A stretch of DNA of 6,536 nucleotides, from the IMG/VR virus record IMGVR_UViG_2734482539_000001; one strand, written 5' to 3'. Under the pieces are notes generated by a model. The model saw only the letters and a program-made list of their open reading frames with translations. It was not told the origin of the DNA and did not search any database. Within the stretch, counting starts at the first letter, position 1; every line of letters begins with the position of its first letter. The DNA comes from a virus. Taxonomy: Duplodnaviria; Heunggongvirae; Uroviricota; Caudoviricetes. Shown here one piece after another: positions 1 to 6,502 of this stretch. The translations under genes were made by a program, and so were the position numbers.

Positions 1-414
1 CAGAGTCTGGTCGGCGGAACGGTGGTCCGGCGTAAGGTTTACGCCCGTTTTCTGGATGCGGTGAACTTCGTCAACGGAAACAGTGACGCCGATCCGGAGC
101 AGGAGGTGATCAGCCGCTGGCGCATTGAGCAGTGCAGCGAACTGAGCGCGGTGAGTGCCTCTTTTGTACTGTCCACGCCGACGGAAACAGATGGCGCTGT
201 TTTTCCGGGACGTATCATGCTGGCCAACACCTGCACCTGGACCTATCGCGGCGATGAGTGCGGTTATCACGGTCCGGCGGTCGCGGATGAATATGACCAG
301 CCAACGTCCGATATCACGAAGGATAAATGCAGCAAATGCCTGAGTGGCTGTAAGTTTCGCAATAACGTCGGCAACTTTGGCGGCTTCCTTTCCATTAACA
401 AACTTTCGCAGTAA
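1..414 (+). CDS. L: Tail tip protein L, C-terminal fragment (5' end lies upstream of the window). Frame is open from nt 1; stop TAA at 412..414.
   Basis: Translation from nt 1 (QSLVGGTVVRRKVYARFLDAVNFVNG...CSKCLSGCKFRNNVGNFGGFLSINKLSQ) matches my recollection of the lambda gpL C-terminus almost residue for residue. Contains the C-terminal cysteine cluster (Cys codons at 232, 259, 328, 337, 349). Position immediately upstream of K is as in lambda. Confidence 0.9.
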   Translation, partial: QSLVGGTVVRRKVYARFLDAVNFVNGNSDADPEQEVISRWRIEQCSELSAVSASFVLSTPTETDGAVFPGRIMLANTCTWTYRGDECGYHGPAVADEYDQPTSDITKDKCSKCLSGCKFRNNVGNFGGFLSINKLSQ

Positions 415-419
415 ATCCC

Positions 420-1163
420 ATGACAGAGACAGAATCAGCGATTCTGGCGCACGCCCGGCGATGTGCTCCAGCGGAGTCGTGCGGCTTCGTGGTAAGAACG
501 CCGGAGGGGGAAAGATATTTCCCCTGCGTGAATATCTCCGGTGAGCCGGAGGCGTATTTCCGTATGTCGCCGGAAGACTGGCTGCAGGCAGAGATGCAGG
601 GTGAGATTGTGGCACTGGTCCACAGCCACCCCGGTGGTCTGCCCTGGCTGAGTGAGGCCGACCGGCGGCTGCAGGTGCAGAGTGATTTGCCGTGGTGGCT
701 GGTCTGCCGGGGGGCGATTCACAAGTTCCGCTGTGTGCCACATCTTACCGGGCGGCGCTTTGAGCACGGGGTGACGGACTGTTACACGCTGTTCCGGGAT
801 GCTTACCATCTGGCGGGGATTGAGATGCCGGATTTTCATCGTGAGGATGACTGGTGGCGTCACGGTCAGAATCTCTATCTGGATAATCTGGAGGCCACAG
901 GGCTGTATCAGGTGCCGTTGTCAGCGGCGCAGCCGGGCGATGTGCTGCTGTGCTGTTTTGGTTCATCGGTGCCGAATCATGCCGCCATTTACTGTGGTGA
1001 CGGCGAGCTGCTGCACCATATTCCTGAACAACTGAGCAAACGAGAGAGGTATACCGACAAATGGCAGCGACGCACACACTCCCTCTGGCGTCACCGGGCA
1101 TGGCGCGCATCTGCCTTTACGGGGATTTACAACGATTTGGCCGCCGCATCGACCTTCGTGTGA
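420..1163 (+). CDS. K: Tail tip assembly protein K, long form of 247 aa with an N-terminal JAB/MPN (JAMM) metalloprotease-like domain and a C-terminal NlpC/P60-like domain. The classical lambda annotation begins at the internal Met at 564 (199 aa).
   Basis: Translation MTETESAILAHARRCAP...VHSHPGGLPWLSEAD... contains an exact H-x-H-x7-S-x2-D JAMM signature (His codons at 621 and 627) and a D-C motif (Cys codon 780..782) typical of NlpC/P60. The last 199 aa match lambda gpK as I recall it. The ATG at 420 lies 5 nt after the L stop; the internal ATG at 564 is preceded by GGAGG (548..552). Confidence 0.88.
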   Translation: MTETESAILAHARRCAPAESCGFVVRTPEGERYFPCVNISGEPEAYFRMSPEDWLQAEMQGEIVALVHSHPGGLPWLSEADRRLQVQSDLPWWLVCRGAIHKFRCVPHLTGRRFEHGVTDCYTLFRDAYHLAGIEMPDFHREDDWWRHGQNLYLDNLEATGLYQVPLSAAQPGDVLLCCFGSSVPNHAAIYCGDGELLHHIPEQLSKRERYTDKWQRRTHSLWRHRAWRASAFTGIYNDLAAASTFV

Positions 1164-1537: not shown

Positions 1538-1787
1538 NNNNNNNNNNNNNNNNNNNNNNNNNNNNNNNNNNNNNNNNNNNNNNNNNNNNNNNNNNNNNNN
1601 NNNNNNNNNNNNNNNNNNNNNNNNNNNNNNNNNNNNNNNNNNNNNNNNNNNNNNNNNNNNNNNNNNNNNNNNNNNNNNNNNNNNNNNNNNNNNNNNNNNN
1701 NNNNNNNNNNNNNNNNNNNNNNNNNNNNNNNNNNNNNNNNNNNNNNNNNNNNNNNNNNNNNNNNNNNNNNNNNNNNNNNNNNNNNNN
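1538..1787. other. Assembly or scaffold gap: 250 consecutive N.
   Basis: Uninterrupted run of n characters visible directly in the sequence. The six-frame track translates it as X. Confidence 0.98.
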
Positions 1788-2355: not shown

Positions 2356-5300
2356 ATGGGTAAAGGCAGCAGTAAGGGGCATACCCCGCGCGAAGCGAAG
2401 GACAACCTGAAGTCCACGCAGCTGCTGAGTGTGATCGATGCCATCAGCGAAGGGCCGGTTGAAGGTCCGGTGGATGGATTAAAAAGCGTGCTGCTGAACA
2501 GTACGCCGGTGCTGGACAGTGAGGGGAATACCAACATCTCCGGCGTCACGGTGGTGTTCCGGGCAGGTGAGCAGGAGCAGTCACCGCCGGAGGGATTTGA
2601 ATCCTCCGGCTCCGAGACGGTGCTGGGTACGGAAGTGAAATATGACACGCCGATCACCCGGACCATCACGTCGGCAAACATTGACCGACTGCGTTTTACC
2701 TTCGGTGTACAGGCACTGGTGGAAACCACCTCAAAGGGAGACAGGAATCCGTCTGAAGTTCGCCTGCTGGTTCAGATACAGCGTAACGGTGGCTGGGTGA
2801 CGGAAAAAGACATCACCATTAAGGGCAAAACCACCTCGCAGTATCTGGCCTCGGTGGTGGTGGATAACCTGCCGCCGCGCCCGTTTAATATCCGGATGCG
2901 CAGAATGACGCCGGACAGCACCACAGACCAGCTGCAGAACAAAACGCTCTGGTCGTCATACACCGAAATCATCGATGTGAAACAGTGCTACCCGAACACG
3001 GCACTGGTCGGCGTACAGGTGGATTCGGAGCAGTTCGGCAGCCAGCAGGTGAGCCGTAATTATCATCTTCGCGGGCGCATTCTGCAGGTGCCGTCGAACT
3101 ATAATCCGCAGACGCGGCAATACAGCGGTATCTGGGACGGAACGTTAAAACCGGCATACAGCAACAACATGGCCTGGTGTCTGTGGGATATGCTGACCCA
3201 TCCGCGCTATGGCATGGGGAAACGTCTTGGTGCGGCAGATGTGGATAAATGGGCGCTGTATGTCATCGGCCAGTACTGTGACCAGTCGGTGCCGGACGGC
3301 TTTGGCAGCACGGAGCCGCGCATCACCTGTAATGCCTGGCTGACCACACAGCGCAAGGCGTGGGATGTGCTCAGTGATTTCTGCTCGGCGATGCGCTGTA
3401 TGCCGGTATGGAACGGGCAGACGCTGACGTTCGTGCAGGACCGACAGTCGGATAAGGTGTGGGCCTATAACCGCAGTAATGTGGTGATGCCGGATGATGG
3501 CGCGCCGTTCCGCTACAGTTTCAGCGCCCTGAAAGACCGCCATAATGCCGTTGAGGTGAACTGGATTGACCCGGATAACGGCTGGGAGACGGCGACAGAG
3601 CTTGTGGAGGATACGCAGGCCATTGTCCGTTACGGTCGTAACGTCACGAAGATGGATGCCTTTGGCTGTACCAGCCGGGGGCAGGCACACCGCGCCGGGC
3701 TGTGGCTGATTAAAACGGAACTGCTGGAGACGCAGACCGTGGATTTCAGCGTGGGTGCTGAAGGGCTTCGTCATGTACCGGGCGATGTCATTGAAATCTG
3801 CGATGATGACTATGCCGGTATCCGCACCGGCGGGCGCGTGCTGGCGGTGAACAGCCAGACCCGGACGCTGACGCTCGACCGTGAAATCACGCTGCCATCC
3901 TCCGGCACCACGCTGATAAGCCTGGTTGACGGGCAGGGGAATCCGGTCAGCGTGGAGGTCCAGTCCGTCACCGACGGCGTGAAGGTAAAAGTGAGCCGTG
4001 TTCCTGACGGTGTTGCTGAATACAGCGTGTGGGGGCTGAAGCTGCCGACGCTGCACCAGCGATTGTTCCGCTGCGTGAGTATCCGTGAGAACGACGACGG
4101 CACGTATGCCATCACCGCCGTGCAGCATGTGCCGGAAAAAGAAGCCATCGTGGATAACGGGGCGCACTTTGACGGCGACCAGAGCGGCACGGTGAATGGT
4201 GTCACGCCGCCAGCGGTGCAGCACCTGACTGCCGAAGTCACCGCAGACAGCGGGGAATATCAGGTGCTGGCGCGCTGGGACACGCCGAAGGTGGTGAAGG
4301 GCGTGAGCTTCCTGCTCCGTCTGACCGTAACAGCGGATGACGGCAGTGAGCGGCTGGTCAGCACGGCCCGGACGACGGAAACCACTTACCGCTTCACACA
4401 ACTGGCGCTGGGGAACTACAGGCTGACAGTCCGGGCAGTAAATGCGTGGGGGCAGCAGGGCGATCCGGCGTCGGTATCGTTCCGGATTGCCGCACCGGCA
4501 GCGCTGTCGCGGATTGAGCTGACGCCGGGCTATTTTCAGATAACCGCCACGCCGCATCTTGCGGTTTATGATCCGACGGTACAGTTTGAGTTCTGGTTCT
4601 CGGAAAAGCGGATTGCGGATATCAGGCAGGTTGAAACCACAGCACGCTATCTTGGCACGGCGCTGTACTGGATAGCCGCCAGTATCAATATCAAACCGGG
4701 CCATGATTATTACTTTTATATCCGCAGTGTGAACACCGTTGGCAAATCGGCATTCGTGGAGGCTGTTGGTCAGCCGAGTGATGATGCATCCGGTTATCTG
4801 GATTTTTTCAAAGGCGAGATAGGGAAAACCCATCTGGCTCAGGAGCTGTGGACGCAGATTGATAACGGTCAGCTTGCGCCTGACCTGGCTGAAATCAGGA
4901 CGTCCATTACGGATGTCAGCAATGAAATCACGCAGACCGTCAATAAGAAACTGGAAGACCAGAGTGCGGCAATTCAGCAGATACAGAAGGTTCAGGTTGA
5001 TACAAATAATAACCTGAACAGCATGTGGGCTGTGAAGCTGCAGCAGATGCAGGACGGACGCCTTTATATCGCGGGTATTGGTGCCGGTATTGAGAACACC
5101 CCTGACGGCATGCAGAGTCAGGTGCTGCTGGCGGCGGACAGGATTGCGATGGTTAATCCTGCGAATGGCAACACAAAACCGATGTTTGTTGGTCAGGGCG
5201 ATCAGATATTCATGAACGACGTGTTCCTGAAACGCCTGACGGCCCCCACCATTACCAGCGGTGGAAATCCACCGGCATTTTCCCTGACACCGGACGGAAA

Positions 5301-5835
5301 GCTGACTGCTAAAAATGCGGATATCAGTGGCAGTGTGAATGCGAACGCCGGGACGCTCAACAACGTCACGATTAATGAGAACTGTCAGATTAAGGGGAAA
5401 CTGTCAGCCAATCAGATTGAAGGCGATATTGTCAAAACAGTGGGTAAGGCTTTCCCGCGGGACTCCCGGGCACCGGAGCGGTGGCCATCAGGGACCATTA
5501 CCGTCAGGATTTATGACGATCAGCCTTTTGACCGGCAAATTGTTATTCCAGCGGTGGCATTCTGCGGCGCTAAACATGAGCGGGAGAATAACGATATTTA
5601 TTCGTCATGCCGCCTGATAGTGAAGAAAAATGGTGCTGAAATTTATAACCGTACCGCGCTGGATAATACGCTGATTTACAGTGGTGTTATTGATATGCCA
5701 GCTGGTCACGGCCACATGACGCTGGAGTTTTCGGTGTCAGCATGGCTGGTAAATGACTGGTATCCCACAGCAAGTATCAGCGATTTGCTGGTTGTGGTGA
5801 TGAAGAAAGCCACCGCAGGCATCAGTATCAGCTGA
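2356..5835 (+). CDS. J: Host specificity protein J (central tail fibre / tail tip attachment protein), 1159 aa.
   Basis: Single 3480-nt ORF. The N-terminal roughly 800 aa ([34 protein letters not shown]...) closely match lambda gpJ as I recall it. GGAG at 2344..2347 sits 8 nt upstream of the ATG. Contains tandem fibronectin-III-like segments (about 4201..4800) and ends in a C-terminal block where receptor-binding function resides in lambda. Confidence 0.95.
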
Positions 5836-5854
5836 ATTTTATAACCCATATACG

Positions 5855-5878
5855 GGCGCCAGAAATGGCGCCTTTTTT
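5855..5878 (+). terminator. Putative rho-independent terminator downstream of J: 7-bp GC-rich stem (GGCGCCA / TGGCGCC) with a GAAA loop, followed by TTTTTT.
   Basis: Seen directly: ggcgcca (5855..5861), gaaa (5862..5865), tggcgcc (5866..5872), tttttt (5873..5878). The T-run follows the hairpin only on the + strand. Confidence 0.6.
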
Positions 5879-5902
5879 ATTGCAGAAAAGCGAGAGGTAA
5901 TT

Positions 5903-6502
5903 ATGCGTAAAGTTTGTGCAGCCATTTTGTCCGCAGCCATCTGTCTGGCCGTATCCGGTGCGCCTGCATGGGCGTCTGAGCAGCAGGCCACACTGAGCGC
6001 AGGGTATCTTCATGCCCGTACGAACGCTCCCGGCAGCGATGATCTGAACGGGATTAACGTGAAATACCGTTATGAGTTTACGGACACGCTGGGGCTGATT
6101 ACGTCATTCAGTTATGCCAACGCTGAAGATGAGCAAAAAACGCATTACAGCGATACCCGCTGGCATGAAGATTCCGTGCGTAACCGCTGGTTCAGCGTGA
6201 TGGCGGGGCCGTCTGTGCGCGTGAATGAATGGTTCAGCGCGTATGCGATGGCGGGTATGGCTTACAGCCGTGTTTCGACTTTCTCCGGAGATTATCTCCG
6301 CGTAACTGACAACAAGGGGAAAACGCACGATGTGCTGACCGGAAGTGATGACGGTCGCCACAGCAACACGTCTCTGGCGTGGGGAGCTGGCGTGCAGTTT
6401 AACCCGACCGAATCCGTGGCCGTTGACGTCGCTTATGAAGGCTCCGGCAGCGGTGACTGGCGTACCAACAGTTTCATCGTGGGTGTCGGTTATAAATTCT
6501 GA
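5903..6502 (+). CDS. lom: Lom outer-membrane protein (Ail/Lom/PagC/Rck family eight-strand beta-barrel), 199 aa, with a predicted signal peptide (cleavage after AWA, residues 1-24).
   Basis: Translation [64 protein letters not shown]...[10 protein letters not shown] closely matches lambda Lom as I recall it. C-terminal aromatic residue (F) is typical of beta-barrel OMPs. GAGG at 5894..5897 lies 5 nt upstream of the ATG. Position directly downstream of J is as in lambda. Confidence 0.9.

Follow-up and report, generated by a model that had tools for sequence, protein, structure and literature searches.

Which outer-membrane receptor is recognised by the tail-tip protein J encoded on the 6,536 nucleotides of caudoviral DNA analysed here (the window; IMG/VR record IMGVR_UViG_2734482539_000001), and is it the LamB used by phage lambda? 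The original prediction held that the C-terminal receptor-binding region of J, assigned to positions 5320-5835, diverges from lambda J and that this implies a non-LamB or altered receptor specificity. The genes L (3' end), K, I, J and lom follow one another in the window as they do in lambda, phage 21, PhiR55_1 and the prophage of Escherichia coli ATCC 8739, and the features considered below are summarised in Table 1.

Table 1. Coordinates of genes, J modules and other features in the window
Feature	Residues	Nucleotide positions	Strand	Basis
L, 3' end		22-414		lambda-type tail gene
K		420-1163		lambda-type tail gene
I		from 1061, interrupted by 250 N at 1538-1787		lambda-type tail gene
J gene (central tail fibre / tip attachment protein)	1159 aa + stop codon	2356..5835	+	ORF list
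Hub + FNIII/Ig domains, lambda-like	1-805	2356..4770	+	97.1% aa identity to lambda
Alpha-helical shaft + upper central straight fibre, second divergent module	806-955	4771..5220	+	43.3% aa identity to lambda
Conserved junction (lower fibre)	956-1005	5221..5370	+	96.0% aa, 91-94% nt identity to lambda
Receptor-binding domain (RBD), 1A2/ATCC 8739 type	1006-1159	5371..5832	+	44.2% aa identity to lambda
PF12421 Ig_GpJ_C match	1029-1159	5440-5832	+	Pfam, E = 2.7e-37
Intrinsic-terminator-like hairpin + T run, between J and lom		5854..5883 (hairpin 5854-5873)	+	consensus scan
Lom-like outer-membrane protein gene		5903..6502	+	Pfam Ail_Lom

On either side of the run of N, one and the same 313-nt segment of gene I is present (1225-1537 and 1788-2100), the two copies having an identity of 93.9%. 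The arrangement has the appearance of two contigs, from separate prophage copies, joined in a scaffold, and not of a real duplication; consequently, L and K to the left of the gap and J and lom to its right may come from different prophages. An antisense ORF of 562 codons (3145-4833, minus strand) lies wholly inside J and there is no support for it as a gene; GC-rich coding DNA often contains long ORFs on the opposite strand.

The J reading frame is intact, and the translation of positions 5320-5835 is exactly the peptide quoted in the original prediction. Global alignment with lambda gpJ (NC_001416, 1132 aa) yielded full-length and collinear homology, with 83% identity over 1159 aligned columns, and Pfam matches that all exceeded the cut-offs were found for FNIII-A_GpJ, Phage-tail_3, Ig_J, Ig_J_second, Phage_Tail_Tip and Ig_GpJ_C, such that the complete gpJ domain set is present. 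The last of these, PF12421, bears the Pfam title 'Tip attachment protein J, C-terminal receptor binding domain', while the names used here for the shaft, the upper and lower fibre and the RBD are taken from the paper on the structure of the lambda tail with LamB (PMC11101478). Chance similarity or a frame artefact was rejected as an explanation on the basis of the intact reading frame, the E-value of the Pfam RBD match and a dN/dS ratio of 0.09 (see below).

The divergence from lambda is modular. In 90-nt bins the nucleotide identity is 92-99% up to about position 4820, 28-67% from 4821 to 5180, 91-94% from 5181 to 5360, 48-64% from 5361 to about 6440 and, thereafter, 91-100%. J therefore presents a mosaic in which two divergent modules, the shaft, where the window protein is 27-28 residues longer, and the RBD, which aligns with one single-residue gap, are separated by a strongly conserved junction. 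The last 170 residues (990-1159) are 48.2% identical to those of lambda, well below the 90% above which the original prediction was to be abandoned, and the predicted divergence of the C-terminus is thus upheld. Moreover, the RBD falls outside the lambda-type (LamB-binding) class, for which an identity of >90% to lambda gpJ residues ~978-1132 was taken as the limit. It was also correctly recognised that the block immediately upstream is lambda-like and that anchor residues persist: DRQIV occurs in both proteins, and IDMPAG and GISIS in the window correspond to VDMPAG and GISVV in lambda. The start of the divergent interval was placed too early; its first 17 residues are still lambda-like and the true boundary lies at residue ~1006 (nt ~5371). 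Two further aspects had been overlooked, namely the second divergent block at residues 806-955 (nt ~4771-5220) and the continuation of the divergence past the end of J, through lom, to about position 6440.

Structural modelling showed that the fold of the RBD has been maintained. An AF2 model of residues 956-1159 is all-beta, with a mean pLDDT of 70.8 and values of about 75-95 in the RBD core, and the low confidence of its N-terminal ~70 residues is what modelling a trimeric fibre as a monomer would lead one to expect. The top Foldseek matches of the RBD model, with E-values of 1e-18 to 1e-20, were to solved gpJ fibres: 9wca and 9wcb, which are A8 gpJ, the latter in complex with OmpC of E. coli EDL933, and 8xck and 8xcj, which are lambda gpJ, the latter in complex with LamB (Ge & Wang 2024, PMC11101478). 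Given these matches, the fold is conserved and the differences from lambda lie in sequence. We found no paper behind 9wca/9wcb. The strand order of the model suggests that loops 1032-1045, 1071-1080, 1102-1104 and 1132-1143 may face the receptor and that the conserved DDQPFDRQ and DMPAG motifs may face the fibre; loops were assigned to either end by this strand order only and the assignments were kept out of the verdict on the receptor.

For the shaft module, a comparison of all modules revealed that residues 806-955 are 97-100% identical among the window, phage 21, PhiR55_1 and ATCC 8739 (96.7% to the window for phage 21 and 100% for ATCC 8739), with lambda as an outlier at 43%. Since the long shaft is common to phage 21, PhiR55_1 and ATCC 8739, the short shaft of lambda is, on these sequences, the unusual form. 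The shaft and RBD modules are functionally separable, since the engineered chimeras 1A2 and A8, which are considered below, work with lambda's short shaft.

Divergence from lambda is not sufficient, in itself, to assign a new receptor. The RBD of phage 21 is 45.6% identical to that of lambda and yet LamB is the native receptor reported for it, with one mutation in J adding OmpC and further ones adding OmpF (PMC11336670). The original prediction had moved directly from divergence to a new receptor, a step which is insufficient alone even though its conclusion is supported for other reasons. Those reasons come from a comparison with characterised alleles. Classical genetics on phage 434 had already established that exchange of J among lambdoid phages can turn a LamB-dependent phage into one using OmpC (cited in PMC11101478); the sole '434' record that we found, Lambda imm434, carries lambda's J. 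In more recent work (Brödel et al., Nature 2024; PMC11338833), the C-termini of natural gpJ proteins were grafted onto lambda gpJ, with residue 964 as the fusion point, and two of the resulting chimeras, 1A2 and A8, use OmpC instead of LamB. This fusion point falls inside the conserved block 956-1005 of the window, and the junction is both the natural recombination seam and the fusion point of engineered chimeras.

The DNA sequences of 1A2 and A8 were taken from Supplementary file 1 of PMC11338833, a machine-read text which is error-prone and has dropped bases, and the window was therefore compared with 1A2 both by frameshift-tolerant protein-to-DNA alignment and through a natural protein proxy. 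Identities of 46-54% obtained by plain tblastn against the machine-read 1A2 DNA were discarded because they had been read through frameshifts. By the tolerant alignment, the window RBD is at least 88.4% identical to 1A2 over 146 cleanly read codons, without gaps and with an uncertainty of a few residues due to the machine reading, while for A8 the same approach gave 67%, with indels. Among 53 unique natural RBDs, a protein search identified P0041 as the closest proxy for 1A2, with 97.2% identity and four residual mismatches that all lie in garbled machine-read text. The window RBD is 92.2% identical to P0041 in a gapless alignment, with 12 substitutions in 154 positions, and via this proxy it belongs to the 1A2-type class (gapless, about >=90% to the 1A2 RBD). 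Blastn among E. coli genomes found no clean natural counterpart, at the DNA level, of the 1A2 C-terminus, the best matches being ~65%, which indicates that the published C-terminus was recoded. The window protein and gpJ-1A2 thus share an RBD allele class and differ in their shafts, lambda's short module in 1A2 and the long natural one in the window; they also differ in that OmpC use has been demonstrated for 1A2, while for the window allele it is predicted.

The receptor data for 1A2 used here are those of Fig. 1b, together with Extended Data Figs 1 and 8, of PMC11338833. Delivery reached ~93% of cells at an MOI of 26 in MG1655 carrying the EDL933 OmpC and, in MG1655 delta-lamB delta-ompC, it was 2% with OmpC variant G1 and ~98% with variants G3 or G5. 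On wild-type MG1655, which is LamB-positive, 1A2 yielded 5% at an MOI of 50 vs 90% for wild-type lambda at an MOI of 58. The chimera is thus specific for OmpC variants, accepting that of EDL933 and not that of K-12 (PMC11338833). A follow-up preprint reports that gpJ-1A2 targets O157 through OmpC, in the anti-STEC vector EB003 (bioRxiv 10.1101/2025.02.28.640725). In the machine-read Supplementary file 10 of PMC11338833 (source data for Extended Data Fig. 2), the 1A2 and A8 numbers of panel C (OmpC-EDL933) are identical to those of panel B (OmpC-MG1655), which probably reflects a copying mistake, made either in the source-data sheet or when it was converted, and panel C was left out of the evidence.

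From its likeness to an allele that is OmpC-dependent in a delta-lamB delta-ompC host, we consider OmpC, with an allele-specific range, to be the probable receptor of the window RBD, and the predicted non-LamB or altered specificity is to this extent supported. That the window RBD still uses LamB, as phage 21 does with a comparably divergent sequence, is a reading to which the case of phage 21 lends some plausibility, but it appears very improbable when set against the poor performance of the 92%-identical 1A2 on LamB-positive cells, its activity in delta-lamB cells given a suitable OmpC, and the distance between the window and phage 21 RBDs, which are only 64% identical and differ by two indels in predicted loops.

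A8 lends further support to OmpC and, together with phage 21, it also provides a caution. Both resemble the window protein in fold and, for phage 21, in the shaft module, and A8 is a gpJ RBD solved in complex with OmpC of EDL933 (PDB 9wcb). Their RBDs are, however, only 63.5-64% identical to that of the window (63.5% for the clean A8 sequence of PDB 9wca) and, compared with it, they lack a stretch of 4 residues and carry an extra one of 5, both in predicted loops. The RBDs of phage 21, using LamB, and A8, using OmpC, are 81% identical to each other, and receptor choice is therefore labile in the gpJ family, with class membership constituting evidence rather than proof.

The positions at which the window allele differs from the 1A2-like P0041 also count against a firm assignment. 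The 12 differences, from window to P0041, are Q1011R, I1012V, K1013L, I1025L, I1052V, C1070S, R1076K, N1078H, N1079T, K1090R, D1134N and S1157T, at least half of which are conservative. In a sample of 41 class members, all except R1076K and S1157T fall at strongly polymorphic positions, and the segment of highest mean entropy is the predicted loop 1071-1080. Six of the substitutions at these class hot spots are non-conservative (Q1011R, K1013L, C1070S, N1078H, N1079T and D1134N), some of them lying in predicted loops. Residue 1070 (nt 5563-5565), a Cys in the window, is Ser in 26 of the 41 class members sampled and Arg in 9 of them.

Given the location of Q1011, K1013, C1070, N1078, N1079 and D1134 at class hot spots, the window allele might possibly, and we suggest this only tentatively, recognise a different set of OmpC alleles from 1A2, or an additional porin. 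A stronger version, in which the RBD uses another outer-membrane protein such as OmpF, or more than one porin, derives some support from the clustering of the window/1A2 differences at class-polymorphic positions and from the finding that a handful of RBD mutations enables the J proteins of lambda and phage 21 to use OmpF or OmpC (PMC11101478, PMC11336670). This version is nevertheless unlikely, considering that so many of the 12 differences are conservative and that both of the characterised natural non-lambda RBDs from this part of the protein family that were tested in delta-lamB hosts, 1A2 and A8, use OmpC.

How widespread the allele is in nature was assessed from complete E. coli genomes. 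The window RBD DNA matches 3,804 of the 5,426 genomes (~70%), with a median of two places per matching genome and up to twelve, while lambda RBD DNA matches 98, all at >=99% identity, and among the matches listed these are laboratory K-12 and B/DE3-type strains. Lambda is therefore the exception: the window RBD type is the norm in E. coli and the LamB-binding tip of lambda is a rare allele which, judged by sequence identity, forms a class separate from that of the window. The original prediction was right that J diverges from lambda but its framing was inverted, since it is lambda that carries the unusual modules while the window allele is common.

The nearest copy in a complete genome is the gpJ annotated in the prophage of E. 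coli ATCC 8739 (WP_000515744.1), together with which we group many RefSeq genes for 'phage attachment tail tip protein J'. Its RBD and its module 806-955 are both 100% identical to those of the window and the downstream Lom is 99.5% identical. Over the whole J gene the nucleotide identity is 96.7%, and the N-terminal 805 residues are 96.8% identical, such that the two do not represent the same prophage copy. The tail region of the ATCC 8739 prophage (NC_010468 2298092-2311928) is followed by tfaQ, pinQ, ydfK, ynfT and a truncated ydfJ, at positions 10891-13837 of the locus. These are Qin-region genes, and the ATCC 8739 copy thus lies at, or has merged with, the Qin locus.

Among sequenced phages, RBDs that are 90-95% identical to that of the window occur in many Stx1a/Stx2a phages, PPompW prophages, vB_EcoS-640R1, 2G7b and PhiR55_1 (94.8%). 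A second class, at 60-65%, comprises phage 21 and many Stx1 phages, and a third, at 42-45%, includes lambda, HK630 and mEp460. PhiR55_1, PhiR5_1 and PhiR47_1, which belong to the window RBD class, are recorded on E. coli C or ECOR13 and not on K-12, hosts which fit, circumstantially, with the failure of 1A2 on K-12 OmpC. The preprint on PhiR55.1 and PhiR47.1 (10.1101/2025.11.03.685801) reports no outer-membrane receptor for either phage, the text of a paper on long-tailed Stx phages (PMC11333237) does not deal with receptors, and a receptor-screen preprint of 2026 covers Drexlerviridae-type GpJ and not the window RBD class.

Relative to PhiR55_1, the dN/dS ratio of the RBD is 0.09 (dS = 0.31, dN = 0.027), and that of the N-terminal 805 codons relative to lambda is 0.10. 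Such a low ratio at this level of synonymous divergence demonstrates that the RBD alleles are old and under purifying selection, and that the window allele is not a decaying remnant. This bears on a separate question, which overlaps with the readings based on OmpC, LamB or another porin, namely whether the gene belongs to a prophage that is defective or cryptic and has ceased to serve in adsorption, which would make its receptor specificity moot. The proximity of the nearest complete-genome copy to pinQ, tfaQ, ydfK and ynfT, the several copies of the RBD allele in many E. coli genomes and the gapped nature of the scaffold would all accord with such a state. We nevertheless regard it as quite unlikely, in view of the intact 1159-codon reading frame and the low dN/dS in both parts of the gene, the retention of tape-measure, M, L, K, I, J, lom, stf and tfa genes at the ATCC 8739 locus, and the presence of 92-95% identical RBDs in plaque-forming phages, including PhiR55_1 and Stx phages.

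Downstream from J, the Lom-like protein yields a full-length Ail_Lom match (PF06316, E = 2.8e-126, profile positions 1-199/199) and is 44% identical in amino acid sequence to the Lom of lambda and 99.5% to its ATCC 8739 counterpart. The terminator-like hairpin that precedes its gene has an 8-bp stem with six G-C pairs followed by TTTTTTATT, and phage 21 carries an annotated terminator at the equivalent place. Since the RBD, the intergenic terminator and the whole of lom constitute one continuous block of lambda-divergent DNA (5361-~6440), the RBD and lom may travel as one exchange unit. The Lom of PhiR55_1 is, however, only 83% identical to that of the window, compared with 95% for the RBD, and the linkage is therefore not strict.

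Taken together, these results describe an intact lambda-family J protein with exchangeable modules, in which a lambda-like hub/FNIII part and short junction are combined with a shaft (806-955) and an RBD (1006-1159) that are the alleles predominating in natural E. coli prophages. The RBD, being of the gpJ-1A2 class, would most likely have the trimeric porin OmpC, and not LamB, as its receptor, and its choice among OmpC alleles probably depends on a few polymorphic residues in the loops. Lambda gpJ with LamB shares the protein family, architecture and RBD fold with the window protein, and differs in its receptor, in a shaft that is 27-28 residues shorter and in the sequences of both divergent modules (44% identity for the RBD and 43% for the shaft). 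By analogy with lambda, binding of the RBD to its receptor would be expected to trigger a fibre-opening cascade of the lambda/LamB type, presumably by the same mechanism.

This is already known, with the exact RBD annotated in RefSeq, its class characterised functionally and exploited in engineered delivery vectors, and the OmpC-bound structure of a related RBD, that of A8, solved. The result carries little weight as a discovery and its value is corrective: the tip of lambda is rare, while the window type occurs in ~70% of complete E. coli genomes and usually in several copies, and divergence from lambda alone predicts no change of receptor, as phage 21 illustrates. For annotation, we propose the label 'gpJ, 1A2/ATCC 8739-type RBD, probable OmpC receptor'. 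If the suggestion that polymorphic residues of the RBD determine the OmpC alleles or additional porins recognised is true, the RBD micro-variants over ~3,800 E. coli genomes would be the trace of an arms race against the polymorphic surface loops of OmpC, with the help of which the host range of a prophage could be predicted from its sequence.
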